Shown here piece by piece: positions 9,716 through 55,873 of a DNA stretch of 64,000 nt (its first letter is position 1; each line of letters begins with the position of its first letter). Location of the stretch: positions 9,545 through 73,544 of the forward strand of contig DBFWPL010000025.1 of the NCBI GenBank assembly GCA_048463395.1, in the 5' to 3' direction. Both the position numbers and the translations under genes were made by a program. The notes under the pieces are model-generated. The model worked only from the letters and a program-made list of their open reading frames with translations. It had not been told where the DNA came from and did not search any database. The DNA comes from Alphaproteobacteria bacterium (GTDB taxonomy: Bacteria; Pseudomonadota; Alphaproteobacteria; RF32; CAG-239).

Positions 9716-10303
9716 TTATTCGACAAAGCCTAAGTATTTCCATTGGTCATTGTCATATTGTAAGTGAACAATGGAACCGTTCGGAATATCGTCGGTTTCA
9801 ACGTTTAGAGCCATTAAGGTCTGACTGAGTGTGATTCCGTGTCCGGAGACGGCAATGTTGGAATATTTGCTTTTACGGGCATATTCGTTAAGAGCCTTGA
9901 AGATTCGTTGTTGAACTTGGCGTTTGCTTTCACCTTGTTCAAAGCGAATGTCGGCGTATTTAGGATCGGCACTCCGCCATTTATCATAGAGTTCGCCAAA
10001 GGTTTCCATGGCTTTGGTATAGTGCATTCCCTCGGCTATGCCGACGTTTACTTCAGTAAAGCGGTCGTCGAAACGGAGGGGAACTTGTATGGATTTGGCG
10101 ACGATGGATCCCGTTTGTTTGGCTCGTCTTAACGGGCTGGATACGATTACTTCGATGTTTTTGTTCTTGAGAAGATTGGCGGCATTGTGAGCCTGATCAA
10201 TGCCCTGATTGGTTAAAACAGAATTGTTGGTGTGGCCTTGGATTTTGCCCTCAACATTATAAGAGCTTTGTCCGTGGCGAAAGATATAGAAGTTTTTGAC
10301 CAT
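9716..10303 (-). CDS. Histidine phosphatase family protein (phosphoglycerate mutase-like)
   Basis: An RHG motif (IFRHGQSSYN) is present and the length is 195 aa. Confidence 0.75.
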   Translation of the reverse strand: MVKNFYIFRHGQSSYNVEGKIQGHTNNSVLTNQGIDQAHNAANLLKNKNIEVIVSSPLRRAKQTGSIVAKSIQVPLRFDDRFTEVNVGIAEGMHYTKAMETFGELYDKWRSADPKYADIRFEQGESKRQVQQRIFKALNEYARKSKYSNIAVSGHGITLSQTLMALNVETDDIPNGSIVHLQYDNDQWKYLGFVE

Positions 10304-10393
10304 ATCTTTTTACTCCTCAAAGCAGTTGATGTTTGAATGAGTGCACTATAACACTTATTATGCTGATTTGCAAAAGTTTTTTAGAGAGGTTGT

Positions 10394-11578
10394 TTAGTCT
10401 TTTTTATCCAGTTTCAGCCATTTTGCCAGAGGGGCGAGCGTTTTTCCCTGAAATAGAACAGAAATGATAACCAAAAAGAAAATCAGGTTAAACAAAAATT
10501 GAGAGTTCGGAAACTGTATCATCATCGGATAGGTGGCCAAAATAATCGGAACGGCTCCTTTTAATCCGGCCCAGCTGATGAAAACTTTCTCTCTGGTGTC
10601 AAATTTACTGCGGGTCAGGCAGGCGAATACGGCCAGAGGGCGGGCTACAAACATCAAAAATACGGCACATCCCAATCCTATCCAGATGACTTCTCCGAGT
10701 TCATGAGGGTTTACCAACAATCCCAAAATCAAGAACATTCCGATTTGGGCTATCCAGGCCAGAGAATCGTGAAAACGTATCATTTGCCGGCGGTAGAGAA
10801 AAACGGTATTGCCAAGAAATATACCGCAGAGATAAACGGCAAGAAAGCCATTGCCACCCAGCAGTTCGGCTATGCCGAAAGTGGTTAAAACCAAGCCGAC
10901 GCCAAATACCGGATAAAGACCGGCATAGCTTAGGCACCAGCGTTTTAATATGTATCCGGCCACACGTCCCAGCAAGAAGCCGATTAAAAGGCCTAAAGAC
11001 ATTTGACGAAAGAATGAGGTTAAGATGTCCGGAAAGTTGAATTCTGGCTGAGAGAGATAAGTAATAGCCCCCATGGAGAGCAAAACGGCCATTGGGTCGT
11101 TGCTTCCGGATTCAAATTCAAGGATTGGTTTTATGCCGGGTTTTAATTCTGATTTGTGAGAACGCATAATGGCAAAAACGGCAGGAGCGTCAGTTGATGA
11201 AACAATAACGCTTAAGAGCAAAGATACCTCAAAGGACAAACCGAGAATATAATAGGTGCTGACATACATAAATAAAGCCGTCAGAAATACGCCCAATGTG
11301 GAGAGGACACTGCCTCGTCCGGCAACATTTTTTACTTCAGACCATAAGGTTTCCAGTCCGCCGGAAAACAAAATCATGCTTAAGGCAATGGTTCCGATAT
11401 AATTGGAAAGTTTGGCATCGTAAAATTGTATGCCTCCGGGGCCGTCGGTGCCGGCAAGCATTCCCAGAGCCAAAAACAGCAAAAGAGCGGGAATGCCGAA
11501 ATTATCTGAAATTCTGTTGGCAAAGACGCAGAGCAACAGCAAAATTCCGGAAATACCCATCAATATAGACAGTGTCAT
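10394..11578 (-). CDS. Na+/H+ antiporter, cation:proton antiporter family
   Basis: This is a 394-aa polytopic membrane protein whose Na+/H+ exchanger family pattern includes GSNDPMAV. Confidence 0.65.
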   Translation of the reverse strand: MTLSILMGISGILLLLCVFANRISDNFGIPALLLFLALGMLAGTDGPGGIQFYDAKLSNYIGTIALSMILFSGGLETLWSEVKNVAGRGSVLSTLGVFLTALFMYVSTYYILGLSFEVSLLLSVIVSSTDAPAVFAIMRSHKSELKPGIKPILEFESGSNDPMAVLLSMGAITYLSQPEFNFPDILTSFFRQMSLGLLIGFLLGRVAGYILKRWCLSYAGLYPVFGVGLVLTTFGIAELLGGNGFLAVYLCGIFLGNTVFLYRRQMIRFHDSLAWIAQIGMFLILGLLVNPHELGEVIWIGLGCAVFLMFVARPLAVFACLTRSKFDTREKVFISWAGLKGAVPIILATYPMMIQFPNSQFLFNLIFFLVIISVLFQGKTLAPLAKWLKLDKKD

Positions 11579-31167: not shown

Positions 31168-31243
31168 GCGAACGTAGCTCAGTTGGTAGAGCCCCGGTTT
31201 GTGGTACCGGTTGTCGTGGGTTCGAGCCCCATCGTTCGCCCCA
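31168..31243 (+). tRNA. tRNA-His (anticodon GTG)
   Basis: A cloverleaf can be drawn with an extra 5' G at -1, the acceptor stem GCGAACG/CGTTCGC, a D arm GCTC-AGTTGGTA-GAGC, an anticodon stem CCGGT/ACCGG with loop TTGTGGT, and a T arm GTGGG-TTCGAGC-CCCAT. A 3' CCA is encoded. It is followed by a hairpin terminator. Confidence 0.9.
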
Positions 31244-41818: not shown

Positions 41819-41850
41819 AAAAAAAATCCCCGAATTTCGGGGATTTTTTT
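41819..41850. terminator. Bidirectional intrinsic terminator after rpoH
   Basis: The sequence is AAAAAATCCCCGAATTTCGGGGATTTTTTT. The stem ATCCCCG/CGGGGAT is flanked by an A-run and a T-run. Confidence 0.7.
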
Positions 41851-42355
41851 AGTTCTCTTTTTCAGAGTGTTTGTTGACTATTTCCGTTCCCCATTCTTCA
41901 GCAAGTTTTTCCAACTTGGCATCAATGGTTTTGAGCCTTTTCTGAGCGGAAATTTTGGAAATGAATACAAAGAAATTCGGTAATTCGCAATAAATAATCA
42001 ACCCGATGGCGGCAGAACCAAACATGATAATCAGATTAAATATATTGCTGATTAAGAACAGAGCGTGGTCAACCGTGAAATTGTTGATAATATTTAAGAT
42101 ATACATAAACACGCCGGAGAGGTTAAAACCTCCGATAATAATAAGCTTGTTGGTGTTTTTGACATCGGTAATCGATACGGTCAGTGTCGGCAGCATACCG
42201 ATAAAGATAACGATAATGGCCGGCAGCATGCTTATTGTTGCGATGATTAATCCGAAAAGCAGCAGTATTTTTTGAGGAAAAGACAGCACGCTGTAAGCGG
42301 ATTTATTCTTTTTAGTTTGTTTTCTTCCGGGTATTCTGCTCATTGTCCGGCCCAC
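41849..42355 (-). CDS. Hypothetical membrane protein
   Basis: A 168-aa protein with about 4 TM helices. It overlaps the kinase-like gene upstream by 16 nt, so the two are probably an operon. Confidence 0.5.
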   Translation of the reverse strand: MGRTMSRIPGRKQTKKNKSAYSVLSFPQKILLLFGLIIATISMLPAIIVIFIGMLPTLTVSITDVKNTNKLIIIGGFNLSGVFMYILNIINNFTVDHALFLISNIFNLIIMFGSAAIGLIIYCELPNFFVFISKISAQKRLKTIDAKLEKLAEEWGTEIVNKHSEKEN

Positions 42356-44391
42356 CAGATTATTATGTTAAATACAAAAGAAGCGGTCATTGCAAAAACG
42401 GCCAGAACGGAAGCAAAACGTAAAGCCGTATTGTGAGCCTCTTCATCAAATTTGTGGCTGCTGTTTAAAATTTTGTTTTTTTCGTTGAGCAGATGGTTTG
42501 CATCGTTTATGGCTTTGGCGTAGTCAATACGGTCTTTCTGCCGGGCGTCTTCATCCTCAAGAATTTCGCAAATTTCAAAAAGTTTGCCGTTTTTGTTGAT
42601 TTTAAGTAATTTTCTTTCCAATGTTTTTTGGAATTTCAAGTTATGGTAGCTTTTAATGATTTTCATTGAACTGTTTATCAGCCATTTGGCCAGATTAGGC
42701 AGTTTTGCCGGTCCGAACTTGTTCTGCATGTTCGTATAAAGACGCAGAATGGCACCGGCTTGGAGTTCCTCTCTGTTGGTATTTAAATCGGTTATGATTC
42801 CGTCGATTTTTTTACCCATCTTGCATCTGAGATAAGCGATGATTGTCTTGTCAAAAGGCGGGGATGTTACCTGTTTGGAGGCGTAAGTATGATCCAGAGC
42901 CCTGAGAACCCGTGCGGCACTATTTACGAACTCGTCTCCGAGGAGAGGGCTGATGCAAGGCAGATCTTCGTCAAAATCGTACATAATACGATCAATGCCG
43001 TAGCCTAAATCTTTTCGGTTAATATAGGCTTTAAATTCGGCGGCATTAGCCGGTGATCTCATGTTTTCCTGTTCCTGATACCATAGTTTGATTAAATCGG
43101 AGGAAAACAGATCGTAAAACGGTTTTATGTCGTTTCCGCTTTTGAGGGTATAAAAAATCGCTTTCGGTGTTCCGTCGGGAAACAAGGTTATGTCTTTGAG
43201 TTTTATCGGAAGCTGAGGAGCAATAAGGATGCAGATTTTTGAAACAATGGTTTCTTCATTGGCTGTGTTTTCGATATTTCCACTGAGAAGTTTTTCGGTT
43301 TTTGCGGCCAGATTTTCATTTTCGAGGCCGTTTTTTATCCAGTCAAGCACTTTGCCGTTTCTGATTAATTCAAAAGCTTCATTGGGGTGATTTTGCATAG
43401 CAACGGCAACGTCGCGAGCCGTGTATACTTTTTCTCCGTTGATTGTCAGCGATTTTTTCGGACGGTCGGAGAATGGGGTTGAACTTGCTGCGGAGCCTAG
43501 TTTTCCTTCAAGAAGATTGTAGGCCTGAATATATCCCAGCCGTTGTTCTTGATTGTCATTTAACAATCCTTTGAAAATCGGGTGCAATTGGTTGGAAACT
43601 TTTTCTTCGCCCAAAAGTGCCAGAAAACTGCCTTTTTTCATTTTAAGCCTTAAGATTTCCGGGGTACTTAACTCGCTGAGAGGGGTGTGTCCGAGGTAGA
43701 GACTCAGAGCAACGACGCCAATAGCATAGATGTCGTTTTTTTCAGAACCGTTTCCTCTGCCTTCTTTTAAAGACAACAGGCTTTCAATTGTTTCAAATAC
43801 GGGAGGCTGATTAAATGCGGGGAATGTTGCCAGACAGTCTCCAAGCACAATTTCTTTTTTATCTATGGAACGATAATATATGTTGTCCGTACGAATGGCT
43901 CGATGGGTAATGTTATAGCCTTTCAGAACTTCGGAAGCGGATAGAAGGTTAAGTATAATGGTTTTCAGCTGATCCGGATGGTTTTTAAATTCGGCGGCAG
44001 AGATTTCGTTTTCAAAAACTTTTCCTCCTAACGGCGTTTTGTAGATAAGGGCCATATTTCTGGAGTTTTTTGGCGGCGTTGTAACCGTTCCGTATTCAAC
44101 CAGTTTCATTATATAAGGGTTGTCTATGGATTTGATGTATGGAAGGAAAGAGCTTCGCGGAGCGGTGATATTGTTGCAGATTAAGGCAAAGAGTTCTTTT
44201 TTCTCGTCAATTTTGTCTTGTACCTTATAGGCTTTGGCTCCGTTATTGTCCAGCCATGCCAAAGGTGTTGAAAAATCGATTTCGTATCTTTCTTTCAACA
44301 CATATTTATTATCTTTAACAGCGGTAAGGGCTTCTGTCGGGGCGGTTTCAGGAGTTGCTTCCTGCGGTGTATTTTCTTCATCGTCAGCCAT
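42340..44391 (-). CDS. Protein kinase-like domain protein with a C-terminal TM anchor; catalytic motifs degenerate, possible pseudokinase
   Basis: The catalytic-loop-like stretch ITHRAIRTDNIYY has HRA where HRD is expected. The activation segment is DCL rather than DFG. The motif DIYAIGVVALSLYLG resembles kinase subdomain IX, and a C-terminal hydrophobic helix is present. Confidence 0.5.
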   Translation of the reverse strand: MADDEENTPQEATPETAPTEALTAVKDNKYVLKERYEIDFSTPLAWLDNNGAKAYKVQDKIDEKKELFALICNNITAPRSSFLPYIKSIDNPYIMKLVEYGTVTTPPKNSRNMALIYKTPLGGKVFENEISAAEFKNHPDQLKTIILNLLSASEVLKGYNITHRAIRTDNIYYRSIDKKEIVLGDCLATFPAFNQPPVFETIESLLSLKEGRGNGSEKNDIYAIGVVALSLYLGHTPLSELSTPEILRLKMKKGSFLALLGEEKVSNQLHPIFKGLLNDNQEQRLGYIQAYNLLEGKLGSAASSTPFSDRPKKSLTINGEKVYTARDVAVAMQNHPNEAFELIRNGKVLDWIKNGLENENLAAKTEKLLSGNIENTANEETIVSKICILIAPQLPIKLKDITLFPDGTPKAIFYTLKSGNDIKPFYDLFSSDLIKLWYQEQENMRSPANAAEFKAYINRKDLGYGIDRIMYDFDEDLPCISPLLGDEFVNSAARVLRALDHTYASKQVTSPPFDKTIIAYLRCKMGKKIDGIITDLNTNREELQAGAILRLYTNMQNKFGPAKLPNLAKWLINSSMKIIKSYHNLKFQKTLERKLLKINKNGKLFEICEILEDEDARQKDRIDYAKAINDANHLLNEKNKILNSSHKFDEEAHNTALRFASVLAVFAMTASFVFNIIIWWAGQ

Positions 44392-48062: not shown

Positions 48063-48096
48063 AAAAAAATCCCTCTCAACCGAGAGGGATTTTTTT
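48063..48096. terminator. Bidirectional intrinsic terminator
   Basis: The sequence is AAAAAAATCCCTCTCAACCGAGAGGGATTTTTTT. Confidence 0.7.
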
Positions 48097-48116: not shown

Positions 48117-48947
48117 TTATTGGTATGTACCGTCTTGGTTACTAAATGAGGAACCTACGGGGGCCTGACTACAGTCAATGGTGGTAACTGACTTAAGTTT
48201 TCCGCTGTCTAACACCAACATAATACCGGCATTGTATCCTAAACTTTTGCTGTCTGCATGTGCGACGTTATCAGCGGAACCTTGTAAGTTTATTCCCATA
48301 AAAGTGTCTTTGAAGGTGGTATTTGATGTCGGGCAGTCAGTGCTATCCGGACTAATGACAACAACAGCATATCCCACATTCAGCATAGCGGTATAAAAAT
48401 CAACGGCGGAGTTGGGATCGGATGGTTTTAAATTTTGTTGACAATATTTACCGCCAATAATAAGAACGCTCTTGTTCTCGTTTAAATTCCAAGTTCCGGA
48501 GCCAAGGAGACCTTGGTCTCGGGCGGCATAGCTGAAGATGTCCTGAAGGCCAAAACCGTTGTCTTTCTTTTCACATTTGTTTTGGGCTTCAAGAAAAGCG
48601 GTTGGAATCATTCCGCTGTTGGCACATTTTCTACACCAGGTAGGAGACATGGCGGCACAAGCCTCAAGAGTTACGGACCAAGGGATTTTGTCTGGACGAA
48701 GAGTTCCTGTCGGGCAGGTTTCCGGTTGTGGGTCAATAGGATCAGGACACCAATAAGCACCGGAGTCAAACGGACAAATCAAACTTTTTCCAGGAGTGGT
48801 TGGGCATAGTTTGGCGTTATAAATAAAACCAAGACTTTCACAAGTCGGTTGAGAACCGCAAGTTTGAGCTGATGCGGTTGAGTTTGGCAAGGAGAAAACA
48901 AGTGCTAAAAGGCCCAGCTTTGCATATTTTTTAAAGTTCTCATTCAT
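48117..48947 (-). CDS. Secreted cysteine-rich protein, function unknown
   Basis: A signal peptide is followed by many Cys residues arranged as C..C/CP motifs. The gene is adjacent to, and co-oriented with, two other Cys-rich secreted proteins. Confidence 0.55.
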   Translation of the reverse strand: MNENFKKYAKLGLLALVFSLPNSTASAQTCGSQPTCESLGFIYNAKLCPTTPGKSLICPFDSGAYWCPDPIDPQPETCPTGTLRPDKIPWSVTLEACAAMSPTWCRKCANSGMIPTAFLEAQNKCEKKDNGFGLQDIFSYAARDQGLLGSGTWNLNENKSVLIIGGKYCQQNLKPSDPNSAVDFYTAMLNVGYAVVVISPDSTDCPTSNTTFKDTFMGINLQGSADNVAHADSKSLGYNAGIMLVLDSGKLKSVTTIDCSQAPVGSSFSNQDGTYQ

Positions 48948-48966
48948 TGTTTTTTCTCCTTAAAAG

Positions 48967-49767
48967 TTATTTAGGCATAATTGGGATAAGTTTACATTTC
49001 CAAGAACAATTATCCAGATTAACATATCCGGAGGCACATCCGGTGATGTAATATTTGGCAGAACAGTTCTCGAAAGAACAGGTATATCCGTTCGGACAAA
49101 TTGAGTAAATTCCGCGGTTTGGGCAGGATTTGCATTTGTTGTATTTTGTAACCCCGTTTTCAGTGCAGCTTTCGGCACCGGCTTCGTGTCCCAAGTCGCA
49201 AACGATGAATTCCGACGCACAAGAGCATCCGCTTTGGGCGGCATTTATGGTATACGGCGAGGAGCAAGTTTGGCAAATTGATTTAGGGTAATAGTAAGTT
49301 TCTAAGTTTCGGTTGTCTCTGCAAAAATTATTAGAGGCTCGGTTTTCAGGCGTGATGTATTCGTCGTTTCCGGAACATTCGGTTAATGTGTTTGTGGCAT
49401 CGGAACAACGGCAAGAATAGTGGGTGCCGTTTTTGTCGGAACAGCTTTCCGTTGTGGCTAATTTGCCGCAAACGGAAAGTTGGTTTCCTTCTTCAACGCT
49501 GTAATAGTCGGAGTTGCACTTGCAGGATTTAAAATATCCGGTGTCATAAGGACAAATTTCATCCGGAAGCATATTTGCTTCACAAGTGGTTAAGGTATAT
49601 CCTGCGTCAGTACATAGAGCTTTATTGTTTAGTTTGAATGAAACGTCTGAATCTCCCACACTAAAGTAACCAAATGAATTGACATCGGTAATACAGCGGA
49701 CTGCCGCATTGCTTGAGGAGAAACCAAGCAGGATAGCGAAACTAAAAAAGAATAAAAATTTAGTCAT
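48967..49767 (-). CDS. Secreted cysteine-rich protein, function unknown
   Basis: A signal peptide begins at the internal Met (MTKFLFFFSFAILLGFSSSNA). The tool ORF extends to 49833. The sequence carries more than 30 Cys residues with CxC, CxxC and GY motifs. Confidence 0.55.
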   Translation of the reverse strand: MTKFLFFFSFAILLGFSSSNAAVRCITDVNSFGYFSVGDSDVSFKLNNKALCTDAGYTLTTCEANMLPDEICPYDTGYFKSCKCNSDYYSVEEGNQLSVCGKLATTESCSDKNGTHYSCRCSDATNTLTECSGNDEYITPENRASNNFCRDNRNLETYYYPKSICQTCSSPYTINAAQSGCSCASEFIVCDLGHEAGAESCTENGVTKYNKCKSCPNRGIYSICPNGYTCSFENCSAKYYITGCASGYVNLDNCSWKCKLIPIMPK

Positions 49768-49802
49768 GTTTCTTCTCCTTATGTTTTCCCGTGTACAAAA
49801 TC

Positions 49803-52754
49803 TTAATGGAAAGACAGCTTGCACAGAACGCACTTGCCGCCATTAGCGTCGTAAGAATGAAGAGGTGTGATAGTTTTTGGATTTGTGCCATCCTGGTTTA
49901 ACCATTTGTCCCTTACTCTTTCACACGCATCTTCCGCACTTTCATTTGGCTGAGCCAAAACACATTGAGCGGCTGGCCAGAGCGACGGAGGTGTGCTTTT
50001 GTCATCTTGAAATTCGGAGTCGTAGTCTGCAACAATTTTATCTTGCATTCCGTAAGAACATTCAGCGTTATTTTCTCCTAAGTCTTCGTTCCAATACGGA
50101 TCTATACAGTTATTTATGACGCAAGTGTAACAGTCAAGTTTTCCGCCACTTTGTTGATAAAGAGCATCGTCTTTTTCACAAACAACAGAGATATCATTTT
50201 TACAATACTCTTCGTAGTCCGGAGTAGGATTTGCACAGAGAGACAAATAGTCATTTACGTTTGGATCGCTTTTGTCCAGTTTACCGAATAATTTACAAGT
50301 GGCATTGTCGTAGTCTGTACTATTGCAAGTGACCATATGTTCGGCATTTTGTAATGTACAAGACGGTATTCCGCTTAAAGGTGTTAAATAGGCATTTTCT
50401 TTCATTTGTTTACAAAGCTGTTGTTGACCTTCATAGATTAAGTATCCGTTGTAAAAGGCATCCGTACTTTTGTTGTGGTCTAAAGTTTGAAGACGATAAA
50501 ACAGGTTACTTTTACCTTTGCCTAACATGTCACTGATAGTTACTGAAAAAGTTGGTATAGTAGTTGATGTCATATAATAAGACCCATTGTTAAAATGCAG
50601 TTCAGAGAATAAAGGGGACGATTCAACATTATAGCCATAAATTTTTACATTTTCATGGTTACTACTTCCATTGGCAATAGCTCCGTATTCAAATTCTTCT
50701 TTATTGGCATTAGGATCAAAGTGGAACGCAACAGCTCTTTCAGGGCTACCGATAAATGATGTGTCTGCAAGATCATTTATGCTAGATGTGCATTGATAAC
50801 TTTTGGTTATAATGCCGTTATGCATAGACCAATAAGCAGTGATTTTTTGATTGGAAATACCGAATACAATACTGGTTCCTGATGCAATATATATATCATC
50901 AGCGATGAGTTTGCTAGACTTTAAGCCAAGTGTTCCTGCCAGATATATTTTCGGAGCAATGACTGTGGAATTACTCAAAGCAACGTCTCTGAGAACAGCT
51001 TTGTCGGTCGCGGTTAATTCAATGTTGCTAAAACTGGCTCCGCGTGAATCTTCAGCTCCCGAGCTTGTGACGTATGGAGATGAAAAAGATTTGACCTTGA
51101 GCTTATAAACTTGATTGCTTTCTTTCAATGTCTCTCCAGGTTCCAGACTGACGTTGCTTGGGGTACTTCCGGAATGATAAGCGGGAAGAAAGATACTGAC
51201 ATGATCAACAGAGTTGGTATAATCGAGATCCATGGAGGAGCAATCAAGGTCTTTTTCTATTGATACAAATGTTCCTCCGTTCATGAAGTATTTCTCTCGG
51301 TCTAGCTGTAAGGCTTCAAATTTTAATTCATCACATGTACCCACACTGTATCTTTGTGTGGAGTATGTTCCTGTAAATGAAGAACAAGGAGGTGTAATGC
51401 AATAGTTTGCACATATGGCAGTATCAGGGTTTGTGTAACATCTTTCGAATTTGTCTGTTGTTTTATCATAACGTCCGGACAATGAATTTCCATTGTTGCA
51501 GCATGTCTGGTAGGTGTCATCTGCACAATAGCTGCCTGCTTCGTCGGAGGCTAGCCTATATCCGTCATCACAAATTTTACAATCGGTTGTTGAACCGCTG
51601 ACACATTCTTTGCAGTTAGAGACTGTGCATTGGGTATTGGAACAATTTGAATAGCAGGTTTGTCCGTAGTAAGCGGTCTTGGTGCAGGTTTGTCCGTCCG
51701 GTTGAGCGTCGACATATCCACCATCACTGCAAGTCGGCTGCTTGCAATCTTTTTGGCAGGTTCTTCCATAGTAAGAAACAGCCGTACATTTGTTGTTTGT
51801 CGGTACGGTATCGACGTAACCACCTTTACTGCAAGTTGGCTGATAGCAATCTTTGTAACAAGTGCGTCCGGAGTAAGAGACTGAAGAACACACTTGATTG
51901 GTTGGTACGCCGGATTTGTATCCGGCATCTTCACAGGTTGGTTGTCCCTCGTCTTTGTAACAAGTTCTGCCATAAGTATTAGTTGTTACGGTATCGCAAG
52001 TATGGTTACTTGGGCAAGCAGTTAGGAAACCGCTTTCTTCACAAGTCGGTTGTTTGCAGTTGGTGTAGCAGGTTTTGTTGCAGTAAGGTGCAGAATCGCA
52101 TTTATTGTTTGCCGGAACGGAAGAAATGTATCCACCGTCTTCGCAGCTTTTGGTGGAAATGTCCTGATAACAGGTCTGGTTGGCAAAAGAGATTGACGTG
52201 CCGGTTTGGCAAGCCGTTAAGGAGTCAGCGTATCCGCCTTCGGTACAAGTTTTGTCCCGACACTTATAGCAAGTGGTTCCGGACTCGTTTTGGTAAGAAT
52301 CTACCAGAGTTTGAGAAGTGTTTTGGCAAGTGGTTGTGGAATATCCTTCATCACAAGAGTTATCTGCTTCTCGACATTTAAAATAGGATTTGTTGTACGG
52401 GCAAAGATCGCTTTCGTCCTTTACGTACCCGTCCGGACAGGTATTAACGTACCCTTCGTCTTTGCATTGAGCATTGCTATCCAAATCCATGGAGTTGAAG
52501 TTTAAGATACCGCAACTTCCGCCGCCGTTGACGGAACAAACAGAGGCAAGTTTTACGGCATTTTTTGCGTTAAAAAGGGGTATAGGCTTTAGCGTGCTGG
52601 GTGTGTGTATGTGTGTGTGTACTAAACTGTCCGGTAATGCCAAAGATAAATTGTAAGTCAGGTTGATTTCTGTTGCCTGTATATCGTTTGAAAGTAGCAG
52701 ACACGTCGAAATACATAACAAATACTTAGTATTAATCATAGGGCACTCCCACAC
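49803..52754 (-). CDS. Large secreted cysteine-rich tandem-repeat protein (983 aa)
   Basis: A signal peptide is followed by tandem modules of about 33 aa of the form C..GGY(V/I)D..P.....C......Y.G(R/Q)TC(Y/Q)..C.QPTC, repeated five or more times. Periodic repeats of about 100 nt are visible at the DNA level between roughly 51700 and 52250. The tool start is a GTG at 52754, and an in-frame ATG (MINTKY) lies at 52739. Confidence 0.6.
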   Translation of the reverse strand: MWECPMINTKYLLCISTCLLLSNDIQATEINLTYNLSLALPDSLVHTHIHTPSTLKPIPLFNAKNAVKLASVCSVNGGGSCGILNFNSMDLDSNAQCKDEGYVNTCPDGYVKDESDLCPYNKSYFKCREADNSCDEGYSTTTCQNTSQTLVDSYQNESGTTCYKCRDKTCTEGGYADSLTACQTGTSISFANQTCYQDISTKSCEDGGYISSVPANNKCDSAPYCNKTCYTNCKQPTCEESGFLTACPSNHTCDTVTTNTYGRTCYKDEGQPTCEDAGYKSGVPTNQVCSSVSYSGRTCYKDCYQPTCSKGGYVDTVPTNNKCTAVSYYGRTCQKDCKQPTCSDGGYVDAQPDGQTCTKTAYYGQTCYSNCSNTQCTVSNCKECVSGSTTDCKICDDGYRLASDEAGSYCADDTYQTCCNNGNSLSGRYDKTTDKFERCYTNPDTAICANYCITPPCSSFTGTYSTQRYSVGTCDELKFEALQLDREKYFMNGGTFVSIEKDLDCSSMDLDYTNSVDHVSIFLPAYHSGSTPSNVSLEPGETLKESNQVYKLKVKSFSSPYVTSSGAEDSRGASFSNIELTATDKAVLRDVALSNSTVIAPKIYLAGTLGLKSSKLIADDIYIASGTSIVFGISNQKITAYWSMHNGIITKSYQCTSSINDLADTSFIGSPERAVAFHFDPNANKEEFEYGAIANGSSNHENVKIYGYNVESSPLFSELHFNNGSYYMTSTTIPTFSVTISDMLGKGKSNLFYRLQTLDHNKSTDAFYNGYLIYEGQQQLCKQMKENAYLTPLSGIPSCTLQNAEHMVTCNSTDYDNATCKLFGKLDKSDPNVNDYLSLCANPTPDYEEYCKNDISVVCEKDDALYQQSGGKLDCYTCVINNCIDPYWNEDLGENNAECSYGMQDKIVADYDSEFQDDKSTPPSLWPAAQCVLAQPNESAEDACERVRDKWLNQDGTNPKTITPLHSYDANGGKCVLCKLSFH
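52601..52620. repeat. In-frame (GT)4-AT-(GT)5 dinucleotide repeat inside the N-terminal coding region of the 983-aa protein
   Basis: The sequence gtgtgtgtatgtgtgtgtgt is ten dinucleotide units. On the coding strand it encodes VHTHIHT. Confidence 0.8.
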
Positions 52755-52793
52755 AGTTATAAAAACTAAAGCCTATACTCTTCATACTAATCG

Positions 52794-52806
52794 TTTTTTT
52801 TTTTTT
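52794..52806. repeat. Homopolymeric T13 (A13 on the coding strand) tract in the promoter region of the 983-aa Cys-rich protein gene
   Basis: Thirteen consecutive T residues lie about 40 nt upstream of the start codon of the minus-strand gene. Confidence 0.8.
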
Positions 52807-52924
52807 GCAACAAAAAAGTGCATCTGGCCGCAGATTTAAAGGTGTTTTTGCAGGTCGGAGGTGTCCGGGTTTATAAAAAAACTTCTCAAAAGAGAAGGTT
52901 AAAGGAGAAAAGTGATGATAAAAA

Positions 52925-53872
52925 TTATTTATAAGAGGCTCGTTTGATACGGTCGTTGATGGCTAGTCCCAAGCCGTGTTCCGGAATAGGGGATATGGCA
53001 ATGCTTTGGCAGTTTTCTTGTTTGTCAGCCAAACGCAGAAAAGCAAAGAGGTTTCCGGCAGCTTCGCAAAGGTCTCCTTTGGGACTAAGGTTTAAGTCAG
53101 CATCCTTTACATTACCGAATCCGATAAAAAACTCACCCGGTTGGCGGGTTACGGCATTTATTCGCAGCGGTCGTCCCGGAGCATAGTGTTTGAGAAGCTG
53201 CCCGGGGGCACTTGGTTTGTCCGGTGTACCGTCGGAAAGTAAAACTTCTTCATTGAGAAAACGGCTTAAATCTTCTTTGGAAGTTCCTCCGGCTCGCAAA
53301 ATGATCACCTGTTTTCCGGTAACGTCGATAATTGTTGATTCGACACCGACTTTACAAGCTCCGCCGTCTAAAATCATGTTTACTTTTTCGCCGAGGCTCT
53401 CAAATACGTGTTCAGCCGTGGTCGGGCTGATGGATTTGAACTTGTTGGCTGATGGGGCGACGATCGGAACACCGCTTTGGCGAATGAGTTCCAAAGCAAC
53501 CGGATGTGCCGGCATTCGGACGGCAATGTTCGGTAAGCCGGAACAGGCCAAATCAATAGCGGCATTGTTGTCTTTACGTTTGAGAATCATTGTGAGAGGT
53601 CCCGGCCAGAATTTTTTTGCCAAAGCCATGACCCTTTCATCCGTTTGGGCATAAGTTGCTAAAAAGTCCGTTTCGGCAATGTGGGAAATCAGCGGGTCAA
53701 AAAAAGGGCGTTGTTTAGCCTCAAAAATTGAGGCAACCGCCTGTGCGTCATAAACATTGGCTCCGAGGCCGTAAACCGTTTCCGTCGGCATGGCGACAAG
53801 GCCGCCGTTTTTTATCGTTTCAGCCGCTTTGTTCAGATTTTCGGGGGTCGGTTGGTAAATGTTACTCATCAA
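52925..53872 (-). CDS. tsaC: L-threonylcarbamoyladenylate synthase (Sua5/TsaC family, long form)
   Basis: A YrdC-like N-terminal domain (GGLVAMPTETVYGLG) is followed by a Sua5 C-terminal domain. Length is 315 aa. Confidence 0.85.
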   Translation of the reverse strand: MMSNIYQPTPENLNKAAETIKNGGLVAMPTETVYGLGANVYDAQAVASIFEAKQRPFFDPLISHIAETDFLATYAQTDERVMALAKKFWPGPLTMILKRKDNNAAIDLACSGLPNIAVRMPAHPVALELIRQSGVPIVAPSANKFKSISPTTAEHVFESLGEKVNMILDGGACKVGVESTIIDVTGKQVIILRAGGTSKEDLSRFLNEEVLLSDGTPDKPSAPGQLLKHYAPGRPLRINAVTRQPGEFFIGFGNVKDADLNLSPKGDLCEAAGNLFAFLRLADKQENCQSIAISPIPEHGLGLAINDRIKRASYK

Positions 53873-54281
53873 TTATCTTCAAAATGTAAGTCAATGCCAA
53901 ATTTAGTTCTCTTTCCTGATATTCTTCTAGCACTTCGGCATCTTCTTTGTCAATAATTTGATAAGATTTTGAAAGTTGGTTATAGCCAAGGTAGTCAAAT
54001 TCATCACAGCCTAAAAGCAAGATGTTCGGGTTGCAGTTATGCGACATGTTTTCTCGGAAAATGTCGGAAAGGTATTGATTTTGAGGAGAAATTCCGTAAA
54101 TGTGAGAGCCATTGCAGGAGGCGGCGTTAAAAGTATGAAGAATTTCCAAAAAGCTGTCCGGAATGGTCGGAAAACGATTGGAAAGCAGCTGTTTTTGACA
54201 AAGGATGATGTCTTTGGGTTTAACCGGAGAACCGAGTTCTATGAGTTGTTGTTTGGTCATTATATCAAGTAAGTTGTTCAT
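53862..54281 (-). CDS. SUKH-family (SMI1/KNR4-like) protein, candidate immunity protein
   Basis: The stretches IPDSFLEILHTFNAASCNGSHIYGI and LLLGCDEFDYLGYN match the two SUKH signature regions. Confidence 0.5.
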   Translation of the reverse strand: MNNLLDIMTKQQLIELGSPVKPKDIILCQKQLLSNRFPTIPDSFLEILHTFNAASCNGSHIYGISPQNQYLSDIFRENMSHNCNPNILLLGCDEFDYLGYNQLSKSYQIIDKEDAEVLEEYQERELNLALTYILKIIDE

Positions 54282-55873
54282 AGTTTATCTCTGGAATTTA
54301 AGAGTTTTTGGATTAAAGAAGCTGAGATTTGGGTTTGTCTTGCGATTTTTTTTATCTTTTGCTGTTTTTGTTTTTCAGATGAGGTTTGAGCAAGATATTC
54401 TTCCCGATAAGACATGATTTCCTGAAGAGTTTCGTAATTGATGTTTGTGGCTTCTGTTGATGGGGAACTGAAGCCGATGTGTTCCCATTCGTCTTCCGGT
54501 TCATCGATATTTTTTCTTCTTAAGGTGCGAGGATCCTGAGTATAGTCGTAATATATCTGGTCTTGAGGATCCAAGCCGCCAAAAAATACGGTATCTTCCC
54601 GTTTTAGATAAATGCGGGCGGAATAAGCTTCGCGATTGCTAAAAGGAGACGTCTCGTCCAAACCGTGAAAAATGTCGCGGTGATAAGGGACATCAACAAC
54701 AAGGCAGAGGTTTTGAAAGTAGTTTACTTGTGCCAGGTTTGGCTGTTCGCTGCTGTCTTGAACGGCGATTTTGTGGTGGACGGAGAATTGCGGTCCGGTA
54801 ATTATTTTTCCGTTTTGGTCGGTGGCAATCAATAAGTTGTCAAGGTTGTGTTCTTGCAAAAACTGTTTGTGTTGTTCGCTGATTTTTTGAGATGTGTCGA
54901 TTCTGGAGACCTTTAGCCCATGTTTTTTCAGTGCGGTAATGATTTCAGGGGTGTAGTTCTCATTCAAAGGTTTGATGTTGGCGGTAATTCCCTTGGTTTC
55001 CATGGATTGAATCAGTGCTTTAACATAGCGTTCATCGACATTATGCCGTTTTAGATACTCAATAAACGAGCGTTTGTTTTTACGGATGAAATCTTTTACA
55101 AAACGTTGTCTGGCTCCGAGAAAAAGTGTGGCGTTTCCTTTGTTTTGAGCACGATTTTTTTTCTTGTTGAAAGCTTCAAACAGGACATCGGAGAAGTCGT
55201 AGGCGTTCATATAAAAAAGAGTTTCCGGCGGTATTTTCATCCGTTGTAGTTGTGTAATGACTCTTTCTTCAATTAAGCGAAAGCTTTTGGCGTGTCGGAA
55301 CAGTTTCCACACCGGAGATTTTCGAATCAAGCGATAGTCTTCGCGAGGAAATTCCTCGTTGTTTTTTAAGGCTTGAGTGTATTGAGGAGAAAGTTGATCT
55401 GTTCTCGGTTTGTTAACAGTGCCATAGTAGTCAACTCGGATAATGTGTTTTTCCTGACGGTGAAGCGGGTAGTGCATTTTGTGTACCCAGGTCATGCCGC
55501 AGTATTCCAAAGCGTCAATCAGTTTGTTTTTGTCGCTTTCTCTTTTGTCGAATTTATTTTTGAGGTCAACGGTTTTATCTCCAAAGTGATAGCGGTCAAA
55601 CAACTTGAGCAGAATACGTTCTTTCCATATATAGTCTAAACGTTGAAACTGCTGTATAAACTCGTGAGGATCCGTAATGGAAAGAATTTTGTTTTCCGCC
55701 TCAAGTTCCTGCTCTTCGGGAGTTTTTTCATACTCAATGTTGTTTTCCGGTTCGGGGAGATTATTTTCTTCGTGGAGGGCGTCAAGGATTTTTCTTAGGG
55801 CGATGACTTCTTCGTCAGTTTCGTCCAGTATTTTAAGATATGTCTTTTTATTGTTTCTTCTTGAAGCCATCAA
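54278..55873 (-). CDS. Hypothetical protein with an internal HNH-like motif, candidate toxin/effector
   Basis: The 531-aa protein contains SVHHKIAV...NLAQVNYFQNLCLVVDVPYHRDIFHG, which fits an HH...N(L)...H...H nuclease-like pattern. Its 3' end overlaps the SUKH-like gene by 4 nt. Confidence 0.45.
   Translation of the reverse strand: MMASRRNNKKTYLKILDETDEEVIALRKILDALHEENNLPEPENNIEYEKTPEEQELEAENKILSITDPHEFIQQFQRLDYIWKERILLKLFDRYHFGDKTVDLKNKFDKRESDKNKLIDALEYCGMTWVHKMHYPLHRQEKHIIRVDYYGTVNKPRTDQLSPQYTQALKNNEEFPREDYRLIRKSPVWKLFRHAKSFRLIEERVITQLQRMKIPPETLFYMNAYDFSDVLFEAFNKKKNRAQNKGNATLFLGARQRFVKDFIRKNKRSFIEYLKRHNVDERYVKALIQSMETKGITANIKPLNENYTPEIITALKKHGLKVSRIDTSQKISEQHKQFLQEHNLDNLLIATDQNGKIITGPQFSVHHKIAVQDSSEQPNLAQVNYFQNLCLVVDVPYHRDIFHGLDETSPFSNREAYSARIYLKREDTVFFGGLDPQDQIYYDYTQDPRTLRRKNIDEPEDEWEHIGFSSPSTEATNINYETLQEIMSYREEYLAQTSSEKQKQQKIKKIARQTQISASLIQKLLNSRDKL

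Follow-up and report, generated by a model that had tools for sequence, protein, structure and literature searches.

Three genes for cysteine-rich, putatively exported proteins

Within the 64,000-nt window (i.e., the entire stretch of DNA analyzed here), three co-oriented ORFs are found on the minus strand: a large ORF at 49803-52754 (gene A), a middle ORF at 48967-49833 (gene B), and a small ORF at 48117-48947 (gene C). Their products are 978, 266, and 276 aa in length, respectively, according to the public gene calls for the same contig. Gene A (P0001; 49803-52739, minus) most likely starts at ATG 52739 rather than GTG 52754, since a Shine-Dalgarno sequence (GGGAG) lies 7 nt 5′ of this ATG and every homologue begins with MINTKYLL. 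The initial annotation was right to describe a large tandem-repeat protein, but its length of 983 aa is replaced by 978 aa for this modular, putatively exported product. Genes B (P0035; 48967-49767) and C (P0032; 48117-48947), also on the minus strand, encode putatively exported proteins of 266 and 276 aa.

Genes A, B, and C probably constitute one operon of an uncultured alphaproteobacterium from the ruminant gut, given the short intergenic gaps (35 nt between A and B, 19 nt between B and C), the Shine-Dalgarno sequence, and the terminator-like hairpins on either side. Specifically, a consensus scan alone placed a hairpin plus T-run at 52882-52897 (minus), 3′ of the upstream Sua5/TsaC-family gene, and the same kind of scan placed another at 48071-48086 (minus), 3′ of gene C; these would mark the 5′ and 3′ limits of the transcription unit, respectively. 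The A-B-C gene order and the flanking genes are kept in three lineages, and this is the single family locus found to be positionally conserved across all three lineages compared. The genes around it have housekeeping roles (Sua5, KdsB, His_Phos, PFOR, and peptidases), and its GC content is the same as that of its surroundings. As a PFOR gene adjoins the locus, the host is likely an anaerobe.

Cysteine accounts for 6.8, 9.8, and 4.7% of the residues in A, B, and C, versus 1.6% in the rest of the window's ORFs that reach 200 aa, making these the top three window ORFs by Cys content; the mature chains of A and B contain 64 and 26 Cys, both even numbers. Each protein begins with a signal peptide, assessed by eye, that comprises a K-containing n-region, a hydrophobic core, and a cleavage site (IQA↓TE, SNA↓AV, and ASA↓QT, respectively), such that all three are probably Sec-exported through cleavable signal peptides. 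The earlier description of three co-oriented, secreted, Cys-rich genes is thus upheld. In A, the signal peptide (aa 1-22; 52674-52739, minus) precedes a conserved leader (aa 23-90; 52470-52673, minus) that was delineated from alignments, is common to the paralogues, and is modeled with low pLDDT. On inspection, a conserved (V/I/L)QA↓S/T, SPase-I-type site is seen in the family signal peptides with no lipobox Cys, and the signal peptide of paralogue L010 (MLKLKYLLLTSVVIVVSNNVLA) contains no Cys at all. No outer-membrane anchor or beta-barrel was recognized, nor any sorting signal of a known kind, so the proteins could remain periplasmic.

Cysteine modules, C-terminal heads, and the gene family

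Near the N-terminus of A, the Cys modules (aa 88-164; 52248-52478, minus) comprise a type-A module, CxDEGY..CP....CPYNxSYFKC (aa 92-122), that occurs in B and C too, and a type-B module, CDEGYS..C....SYQNExGxTCYKC (aa 129-160). These are followed by six tandem type-C modules (aa 165-370; 51630-52247, minus) with the consensus CxxGGY..P....C....YyGrTCxxxCxQPT. The tandem repetition had been recognized previously as at least five modules of 33 aa; both figures are revised here, to six modules of 34-36 aa each. Type-C modules share 24-62% pairwise identity, and in a leave-one-out HMM analysis every one of them scored 29-58 bits, versus at most 18 bits in 1000 composition-matched shuffles. AlphaFold2 modeling of residues 88-368 gave a pLDDT of about 80-87 and a recurring helix-plus-hairpin pattern, and the type-C module is accordingly predicted to combine a short helical turn with a beta-hairpin. 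Its cysteines follow the spacing C-x14-C-x9-C-x3-C-x4, where only C1 and C26 are invariant and the second pair shifts jointly (C16/C30, C10/C30, or C10/C16); these correlated shifts are more in keeping with a pair of disulfides in each module than with a metal site.

At the DNA level, the repeat of roughly 100 nt originally noted around 51.7-52.25 kb was recovered as a 102-nt period at 51643-52119, with copies that are 61-74% identical. Tandem Repeats Finder did not call the gene A repeat, as its copies are too diverged. The number of Cys modules per homologue ranges from 4 to 7, and the more distant gene A orthologues are short by exactly one 34-aa unit (five versus six modules). The expectation of copy-number variation is therefore borne out insofar as counts differ among orthologues and paralogues, but the case for ongoing recombination is weak, since the DNA copies have diverged to the identities given above and their longest common exact run, among those listed, is 14 nt. 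The differences in gene A look like old unit-length indels rather than the product of a hot repeat.

Searches of A, B, and C against Pfam and NCBIfam at E up to 1 returned no relevant matches, a PHROGs search returned none, and the type-C profile had no match among PDB sequence profiles, even at E up to 10. By these comparisons with Pfam, NCBIfam, and PDB, the type-C module appears to belong to no described family. The remaining two proteins are built differently. Gene B encodes Cys modules throughout, lacks a head, and shows homology to paralogue P0022 in the latter's Cys region. In the gene C product, the signal peptide is accompanied by a single type-A module, and the Cys-poor C-terminal domain, some 150-170 aa long, matches no known family.

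The C-terminal half of A (aa 395-978; 49806-51557, minus) begins with a linker that contains Cys, continues through a beta-rich core at about aa 545-755, and finishes with an alpha/beta part, which contains Cys as well; it has the conserved motifs LTATD, IYGYN..xPxFSE, NLFxRFxT, and KxNSYL; the monomer model has a pLDDT of 73.6 and a pTM of 0.67. No family match to this 500-aa head was obtained in Pfam, NCBIfam, PHROGs, or PDB, and Foldseek found no significant neighbor (best E of 0.88 in PDB and 0.034 in BFVD). Its long, weak Foldseek alignments, all non-significant (TM of at most 0.38), were for the most part with proteins of the right-handed beta-helix fold, tailspikes and tail fibers among them. 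Judging from the model, the head would be a novel beta-rich domain.

The gene A head profile does not align to the paralogue heads. Lcl_C (PF07603/DUF1566) was not matched in A, B, or C (Pfam, E up to 1); it is present in paralogue P0008 (37.5 bits versus a Pfam cutoff of 34.9) and, with scores under that cutoff, in four further paralogues. Similarly, paralogue P0017 has a Pectate_lyase_5 match just under the Pfam cutoff, and the third gene of an "Azospirillum" operon combines a C-like N-terminus with an end that, by eye, is DUF1566-like. The heads of the family thus appear to be interchangeable: Lcl_C/DUF1566, pectate-lyase-like adhesive, or novel and beta-rich. The initial annotation's suggestion of adhesin-like proteins gains indirect support, since paralogues on the same stalk bear Lcl_C/DUF1566 and pectate-lyase-like adhesive heads.

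Out of 1.84 billion representative proteins, just 81 clusters contain relatives, and scanning 185,579 species genomes with a two-peptide pattern retrieved three MAGs, all labeled Alphaproteobacteria or Azospirillum. One MAG, RGIG8504, carries at least 11 A-type paralogues. Family members have in common a signal peptide, the leader, and 4-7 Cys modules, followed by variable heads; their genes are scattered over the genome rather than gathered in a single cluster, and no B- or C-like gene lies downstream of the A-type paralogues within the flanks examined. A, B, and C are one conserved locus of a lineage-restricted multigene family in MAGs of ruminant-gut Alphaproteobacteria.

The 5′ cassette and its poly(A) tract

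A conserved cassette of ~95 nt, common to all close family members, lies 5′ of gene A (52740-52835, minus). In the window, it consists of CACTTTTTTGTTGC (52820-52807), an A13 run (52806-52794), CGAT, TAGTAT (52789-52784), TATAGGCTTT further on, and the Shine-Dalgarno sequence (52750-52746). The cassette pattern has one match in the window versus zero expected, and exactly one copy occurs in each of the 16 loci carrying it (35 loci scanned). Fifteen aligned copies from three species contain invariant blocks, and the motifs TGTAACAGAAAT and TTTAAA are conserved upstream of the A-tract. In three closely related MAG lineages, each of the family transcription units that were examined has one cassette on its 5′ side. 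The cassette is a practical marker to locate all family members, and it accounts for the breaks that assemblies of these genomes show at this point.

The poly(A)13 tract (52794-52806, minus) is a candidate slipped-strand switch. Every family copy of the cassette includes such a tract, with lengths of A12-A14, and homopolymers 12-14 nt long are inherently unstable. Measured from GTTGC to TA(G/A)TAT, the distance comes to 17 nt in 18 of the 23 copies, to 18 nt in four, and to 19 nt in one; where the tract is A12, one extra base preserves the spacing, while copies L027 and L028 are off by +1. The -35/-10 hexamers were assigned by eye, and a simple sigma-70 scan called no promoter, whether the tract was A12 or A14. 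For the P0037 gene, four independent assemblies have tracts of A12, A12, A13, and A14; the tract is the only indel in about 1 kb, and the assemblies are otherwise 1-2 substitutions apart. These differences, which were seen in one of the five genes having several assemblies, could be short-read homopolymer assembly errors. By analogy with known systems, the family may be phase-variable via the poly(A) tract, and the shared cassette with its A12-14 run suggests that A, B, and C may be switchable, adhesin-like surface proteins. This cassette, just beyond 48117-52754, is a more plausible variation device than the repeats.

Proposed function, alternatives, and known systems

On balance, we lean toward A, B, and C being Sec-exported, disulfide-stabilized, stalk-and-head binding proteins comparable to the adhesin Lcl of Legionella, perhaps phase-variable through poly(A). 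Following export of each protein via its cleavable signal peptide, periplasmic oxidation of the Cys modules would yield small, disulfide-stapled units that align into a rigid stalk, with module number setting its length. The stalk would present the C-terminal head as a "lollipop," where a disulfide-rich rod replaces the collagen triple helix of Lcl; the head would be novel and beta-rich in gene A, and Lcl_C/DUF1566 or pectate-lyase-like and adhesive in paralogues with the same stalk. Gene B would provide a stalk without a head and gene C a single module with its own small head. As all three have an N-terminal type-A module, it is tempting to speculate that they assemble on, or dock to, one common partner. 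The cassette would drive each close-clade family unit examined, and slippage of the A12-14 tract, just upstream of the -10-like TA(G/A)TAT, might alter promoter geometry and turn individual members ON or OFF, as in the vlp genes of Mycoplasma hyorhinis, giving a variable repertoire of binding proteins. A bolder proposal, which we consider tentative and somewhat doubtful, is that of a contingency family: a dozen or more dispersed genes with a slippery A12-14 promoter cassette, a new disulfide-rich repeat, and swappable heads, whose independent ON/OFF switching would make the adhesive surface of the cell vary combinatorially within the ruminant gut. Contingency multigene families are known mainly from mycoplasmas and some pathogens.

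The family may instead be exported modular binding proteins that do not phase-vary, where the cassette is a strong co-regulated promoter and 5′ UTR (e.g., one regulator's site), the A-tract serves as an invariable structural or UP-like element, and tract lengths differ because of errors in assembly. The predominant 17-nt distance with its compensating base in A12 copies, the invariant tract length in four of five genes having several assemblies, and the conserved TGTAACAGAAAT and TTTAAA all speak for it, as does the poly(T) upstream of the vpma promoter -10 region in M. agalactiae, which plays no part in variation (PMC2268961). This alternative is rather unlikely in light of the P0037 tracts, the +1 deviations of L027 and L028, and the inherent instability of such homopolymers. 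Less probable still are periplasmic or envelope-structural proteins (i.e., periplasmic arrays, a coat or S-layer-like component, or a redox or metal buffer), despite the extremely high Cys content, the headless gene B, and the lack of any recognizable outer-membrane translocation or anchoring domain in Pfam and NCBIfam searches. The Lcl_C/DUF1566 and pectate-lyase-like domains of the paralogues are typical of extracellular binding proteins (PMC11162425), the Cys covariation suits disulfide pairs and not four-ligand metal sites, and swapped heads with a variable repertoire are hard to square with a housekeeping role in the envelope.

Two further alternatives arise from the architecture and the structural comparisons. 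The differing paralogue heads recall polymorphic toxins or effectors, in which an N-terminal delivery region and repeats precede variable toxin C-termini, with immunity or helper genes downstream; it is characteristic of such toxins that the N-terminus is conserved and the C-termini vary. This is very improbable here: the identifiable heads are binding or adhesive domains and not nucleases, deaminases, or peptidases, B and C are themselves family members with signal peptides, unlike cytoplasmic immunity proteins, the A-type paralogues lack B- or C-like followers within the flanks examined, and A, B, and C have no Pfam, NCBIfam, or PHROGs match. Prophage-derived or phage-like receptor-binding proteins (tail fibers or tailspikes), as hinted at by the beta-helix alignments of the A head, are scarcely credible given that all such matches are non-significant (E of at least 0.03, TM of at most 0.38), the PHROGs search was negative, the neighbors are housekeeping genes, the GC content matches that of the surroundings, and phage tail proteins are not expected to have signal peptides.

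The family is a clean natural domain-swapping experiment in which promoter, leader, and stalk are constant and heads vary, some being known adhesin domains. As these share the stalk, the other heads, including the 500-aa head of A, are prime candidates for new ligand-binding folds. Should the poly(A) tract truly switch, it would represent Vlp-like phase variation in uncultured gut Alphaproteobacteria, whose host and particle interactions are, to our knowledge, essentially undescribed.

Tandem modules rich in disulfides are common among the extracellular proteins of eukaryotes; for bacteria they are unusual, and especially so for a probable anaerobe. EGF-like, furin-like, and Giardia VSP repeats are, as here, small tandem Cys-rich modules of secreted proteins, as is Neocallimastix CysRRep, for which the rumen habitat also overlaps (bioRxiv 10.64898/2026.06.07.730663). 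Identity with CysRRep was rejected on spacing (Cx6-9Cx5-7Cx8-11Cx7-8CC versus C-x14-C-x9-C-x3-C-x4), and no Pfam or NCBIfam match at E up to 1 was obtained to EGF-like, furin-like, VSP, or myxococcal Cys-rich repeats. The label "eukaryotic-like" in the initial annotation is not supported, as no eukaryotic Cys-rich repeat was matched in sequence or in fold. Right-handed beta-helix proteins (pectin-lyase fold, autotransporter passengers, VacA, and tailspikes) resemble the A head in being beta-rich with short consecutive strands, and theirs is the sole fold with long alignments to it, all weak and non-significant, alongside the near-threshold Pectate_lyase_5 of P0017; unlike autotransporters, A, B, and C have no beta-barrel domain in Pfam.

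Indels in the -35/-10 spacer switch the genes vlp, maa2, and vmm (PMC2268961). The Vlp system of M. hyorhinis (and maa2 and vmm) is, as here, based on a multigene family with a highly conserved 5′ region that includes promoter and signal peptide (PMC2268961; Citti & Wise 1995, cited there), on in-frame tandem repeats of variable number (here 4-7, with a 34-aa indel between orthologues), and on a length-variable homopolymer adjoining the -10 element, although the hexamers here were assigned by eye and switching is a candidate only. Unlike Vlp, the host is a Gram-negative alphaproteobacterium, apparent SPase-I-type cleavage with no lipobox seen replaces lipoprotein processing, the genes are dispersed and not in one cluster, and the repeats are Cys-rich and diverged.

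Finally, a close architectural parallel is the Legionella collagen-like adhesin Lcl, a T2SS-dependent surface protein with a signal peptide, an N-terminal helix, a collagen-like stalk of variable length, and a DUF1566 head (PMC11162425). The Lcl stalk is made of GXY collagen repeats, whereas Cys-rich helix-plus-hairpin modules of 34-36 aa, with no GXY periodicity seen, take their place here, and the gene A head, unlike that of Lcl, is not Lcl_C. Otherwise, "stalk plus head" proteins of the Lcl/DUF1566 type (PMC11162425, PMC6460258) share several features with the present family: a signal peptide, a conserved N-terminal stretch that is short and predicted to include a helix, a repetitive stalk whose unit number varies, and a head at the C-terminus. 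The Lcl head family itself, Lcl_C/PF07603, is also found on several gene A paralogues.

Gene organization and cysteine modules

Genes A, B, and C occupy open reading frames (ORFs) on the minus strand at 49803-52754, 48967-49833, and 48117-48947, respectively. Public gene calls made independently for this 145-kb metagenomic scaffold predict proteins of 978, 266, and 276 aa. The initial annotation of three co-oriented genes for Cys-rich proteins with signal peptides is borne out, and its interpretation holds in part. Specifically, Cys accounts for 6.8 % of A, 9.8 % of B, and 4.7 % of C relative to 1.6 % in other long ORFs of the window, making these the top three ORFs by Cys content. By inspection, each product opens with a Sec-type signal peptide, with likely cleavage between IQA and TE in A, SNA and AV in B, and ASA and QT in C. 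The start codon of gene A is most likely the ATG at 52739, judging from the GGGAG located 7 nt upstream and the MINTKYLL start of all homologues. Given the short intergenic gaps (35 nt for A-B and 19 nt for B-C) and the terminator-like hairpins with T-runs at both ends (52897-52882 and 48086-48071, coding strand), A, B, and C look like one operon, the GC content of which equals that of its surroundings. The mature chains of A and B possess even numbers of Cys (64 and 26, respectively), and that of C (48117-48947) an odd number, 13, such that protein C may carry a free thiol or form an intermolecular disulfide.

Protein A has six tandem modules of 34-36 aa each at residues 165-370 (DNA 51630-52247), termed type C, with the consensus CxxGGYxxxxPxxxxCxxxxYxGxTCYxxCxxPT and a pairwise identity of 24-62 %. 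In a leave-one-out test, each module, compared with an HMM of the remaining five, scored 29-58 bits, while the best among 1000 composition-matched shuffles reached no more than 18 bits. The DNA repeats with a period of 102 nt, its copies being 61-74 % identical and the longest exact run in common 14 nt; Tandem Repeats Finder called neither this repeat nor anything else relevant on the DNA. The repeats originally described as at least five copies of a 33-aa module with a DNA period of about 100 nt are therefore real, but their number is six and their length 34-36 aa. Two further Cys module types lie N-terminal to this array: type A (aa 92-122; CxDEGY..CP....CPYNxSYFKC) and type B (aa 129-160). 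The A+B module pair is triplicated in some paralogues (e.g., P0006), and the mature parts of proteins B and C likewise open with a type-A module. Protein B is also homologous to the Cys region of the 941-aa paralogue P0022 over 184 residues, with 39 % identity. In the module alignment, only C1 and C26 are invariant, and the remaining two Cys shift together, from the canonical C16+C30 to C10+C30 or C10+C16 in variants. This correlated pattern suggests that C1 and C26 would form a fixed disulfide, accompanied by a second, movable one.

An AlphaFold2 model of full-length A, built from a 16-sequence alignment, reached a pLDDT of ~80-87 for residues 88-368, where each type-C module is predicted to fold as a helical turn of four residues at CxxGGY, connected by a bridge to a beta-hairpin of 7+8 residues. 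Outside these residues the model was poor (mean pLDDT 51), including the leader that follows the signal peptide and the C-terminal half of the protein. A second model, covering residues 395-978 and using nine sequences with the same head (i.e., the C-terminal domain after the last Cys module), gave a pLDDT of 73.6 and a pTM of 0.67, and predicts numerous short strands in succession that form a beta-rich core (~aa 545-755), after which comes an alpha/beta end containing Cys. At E up to 0.001, neither model had a Foldseek match in the PDB, and the head model had none in BFVD either. The long, weak alignments obtained with the head involved right-handed beta-helix proteins only (pectin methylesterases, VacA, tailspikes), a resemblance that serves as a hint and nothing further.

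A multigene family with diverse heads

Scans of A, B, and C against Pfam, NCBIfam, and PHROGs returned no relevant match, and Pfam returned none for the head alignment. PDB sequence searches with full-length A, its head, and a 31-module profile (E up to 10), and with B alone and C alone, gave no meaningful match. The supposed novelty of the module thus held in Pfam, NCBIfam, and the 31-module profile search of the PDB, and by sequence the modules and the head of A appear to be genuinely without relatives there. The 'CysRRep' of rumen fungi was considered as the identity of the module and ruled out by its Cys spacing. With E up to 0.001, a complete HMMER search of 1.84 billion representative proteins recovered no more than 81 clusters, and a word-indexed search picked out 31 among 5.8 billion clusters. 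Among 185,579 species, each represented by one genome, two conserved peptide patterns located relatives in three MAGs only, namely 'Alphaproteobacteria bacterium RGIG8504' (water-deer cecum), 'uncultured Azospirillum sp. SRP199465_co1_102', and 'Alphaproteobacteria bacterium STF2_225'; since just two patterns were used, this distribution is a lower bound. Human-gut metagenome contigs carry more distant relatives. Six distant proteins (P0026, P0030, P0031, P0048, P0072, and P0073) have in common a [YWF][WL]LPD[YFW] motif right after the signal peptide, followed by a Gly/Ser/Asp-rich stretch; the motif, which protein A does not obviously have, might serve in sorting or anchoring.

Full-length orthologues of A (P0002/P0003 with 44 % identity and the one at locus L006 with 56 %) keep its position, with Sua5 upstream, B- and C-type genes following, and His_Phos_1 and KdsB downstream. 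The window also holds, between Sua5 and the peptidase genes, overlapping genes for 531- and 139-aa proteins (53862-55873, minus strand), neither of which matches a Pfam family at E up to 0.01. Related species keep this pair (546/531 aa plus 139 aa), and the 531-aa protein ends in an 'SVHHKIAV...N...H' stretch that is HNH-like by eye. Another pair kept in related species consists of a gene for a 683-aa protein (41849-44391, minus strand), with only a borderline protein-kinase-domain match (31.0 bits vs a cutoff of 31.7), and an overlapping 168-aa ORF (164 aa in the public record) with no Pfam match.

All other relatives share the signal peptide, the leader of ~65 aa, and the Cys modules, and their similarity ends beyond the final module. 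At least 11 such A-type genes occur in RGIG8504 alone, seven being cut off at contig ends. Those heads to which a name can be given are binding domains. For example, P0008 carries an Lcl_C/DUF1566 head above the Pfam cutoff; P0006, P0011, P0013, and P0015 carry the same head below it, and P0017 has a Pectate_lyase_5 'adhesive domain' just below cutoff. By hhalign, the head profile of A showed no relation to paralogues P0017 and P0022. B-type paralogues occur elsewhere on the same scaffold, one of them preceding a C-like gene whose similarity is limited to the signal peptide and the type-A module. Likewise, in L006 (the 'uncultured Azospirillum' MAG), the third operon gene (9831-10610) joins the signal peptide and type-A module of C to a C-terminus that is DUF1566-like by eye (AAEYC...GDWFLPS), unlike C's own domain. 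Taken as a whole, the varied heads of A-type, B/C-like, and third-gene members point to head swapping at every family position. Among further homologues, the 389-aa B-type protein P0040 has precomputed ubiquitin-family Pfam matches (PF00240, PF11976), which may reflect a mis-call or a fusion that would be odd in a Cys-rich protein secreted by a bacterium. Some family genes sit beside flagellar genes (L041-L043, encoding P0020, and the B-type loci L024 and L036), between fliF and flgE or beside flaF.

The proposal that the repeats permit copy-number variation by recombination survives in part. Whole units have been gained or lost during evolution, with type-C modules numbering 4-7 across homologues and the 44 % orthologues (P0002/P0003) missing exactly one 34-aa unit, but frequent homologous slippage within gene A is unlikely because its DNA copies are too diverged. 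At locus L003, gene C is followed by ribosomal protein S21 and PFK rather than by His_Phos_1 and KdsB as in L002/L004, and this downstream flank matches that of a paralogous B-C pair (the P0042 locus, L044-L046). Such a context would be explained either by an exchange between paralogous loci through recombination or by a chimeric assembly.

The 5' cassette and its poly(A) tract

Just outside the region initially annotated, gene A is preceded by a conserved cassette of ~95 nt (52835-52740, minus strand) with the layout CACTTTTTTGTTGC-A13-CGAT-TAGTAT-...-TATAGGCTTT...GGGAG...ATG. The pattern matches once in the window, relative to 0 matches expected by chance. In three close lineages, the cassette lies upstream of every family transcription unit examined, whether this starts with an A orthologue, an A paralogue bearing another head, or a B-type gene; 16 of the 35 loci carry it, each in exactly one copy, and three distant relatives that were checked (L025, L021, L022) lack it upstream. 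The sequence upstream of the cassette differs between L044 and L045. An alignment of 15 copies revealed invariant blocks (CACTTTTTTGTTGC-A12, TTA-TAT, AG-T-TAGGC, and the start codon) preceded by the semi-conserved motifs TGTAACAGAAAT and TTTAAA. At gathering thresholds, Rfam found only a tRNA-His (GTG; 31168-31243, plus strand) in the whole window, also the sole RNA gene found there when ARAGORN is included, and the cassette is thus not a described RNA family.

The A-run measures 12-14 nt among cassette copies. In 18 of 23 copies, GTTGC and TA(G/A)TAT are 17 nt apart; in four others this distance is 18 nt, and in the remaining one it is 19 nt. Tract length was polymorphic in one case: four independent assemblies encoding the identical protein P0037 possess A12, A12, A13, and A14, and a fifth (L040) starts, garbled, inside the cassette. 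Over ~1047 nt, these five assemblies differ by 1-4 substitutions, with no indel outside the A-tract. Such variation was not seen in four other genes (2-3 assemblies each). Contigs L038, L040, L047, L049, and L050 start exactly at or inside the cassette, which fits assemblies broken by repeated or heterogeneous sequence.

By eye, the tract falls between a TTG-containing -35-like and a -10-like hexamer, the modal state being TTGTTG with an 18-nt spacer or TTGCAA with a 15-nt spacer. A simple sigma-70 scan called no promoter in the A12 or A14 allele, and where the tract lies with respect to the actual promoter is therefore an inference. By eye, the cassette did not suit sigma-54 or sigma-28 either, owing to misfits in spacing or the -10 element. 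Some copies have TAAAGTTT upstream, which is sigma-28 -35-like and has no matching -10 element. The cassette and its poly(A) tract provide a specific hypothesis that is testable from existing reads.

Stalk-and-head proteins and known systems

On the best-supported reading of the sequence features, members of the A/B/C family are exported by the Sec route and combine a head with a disulfide-stapled stalk. As no conserved lipobox is present, they were not taken for lipoproteins. The proteins may be exported beyond the periplasm, the module arrays may adopt a rod shape, the heads may bind ligands, and A, B, and C may co-assemble. They represent modular, repeat-containing, adhesin-like proteins, and possibly a contingency gene family, with undescribed modules and in an unstudied host lineage.

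In Mycoplasma hyorhinis, indels in the -35/-10 spacer switch vlp genes on and off (PMC2268961). Like vlp, the present family combines a conserved promoter and signal-peptide region with in-frame tandem repeats and a homopolymer beside the -10 element, and comparable switching may occur. The vpma promoter of M. agalactiae is preceded by a comparable poly(T) tract that does not contribute to variation (PMC2268961), and an A-tract by itself is thus not proof of switching.

The closest functional analogue appears to be the Legionella adhesin Lcl, which possesses a signal peptide, an N-terminal helix, a collagen-like stalk of variable length, and a DUF1566 head, and which is a T2SS-exported, cell-surface 'lollipop' (PMC11162425). 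Repeat-number polymorphism of Lcl affects adhesion (PMC6460258). In contrast to Lcl, the putative stalk of A is an array of Cys modules, and its head is a new domain.
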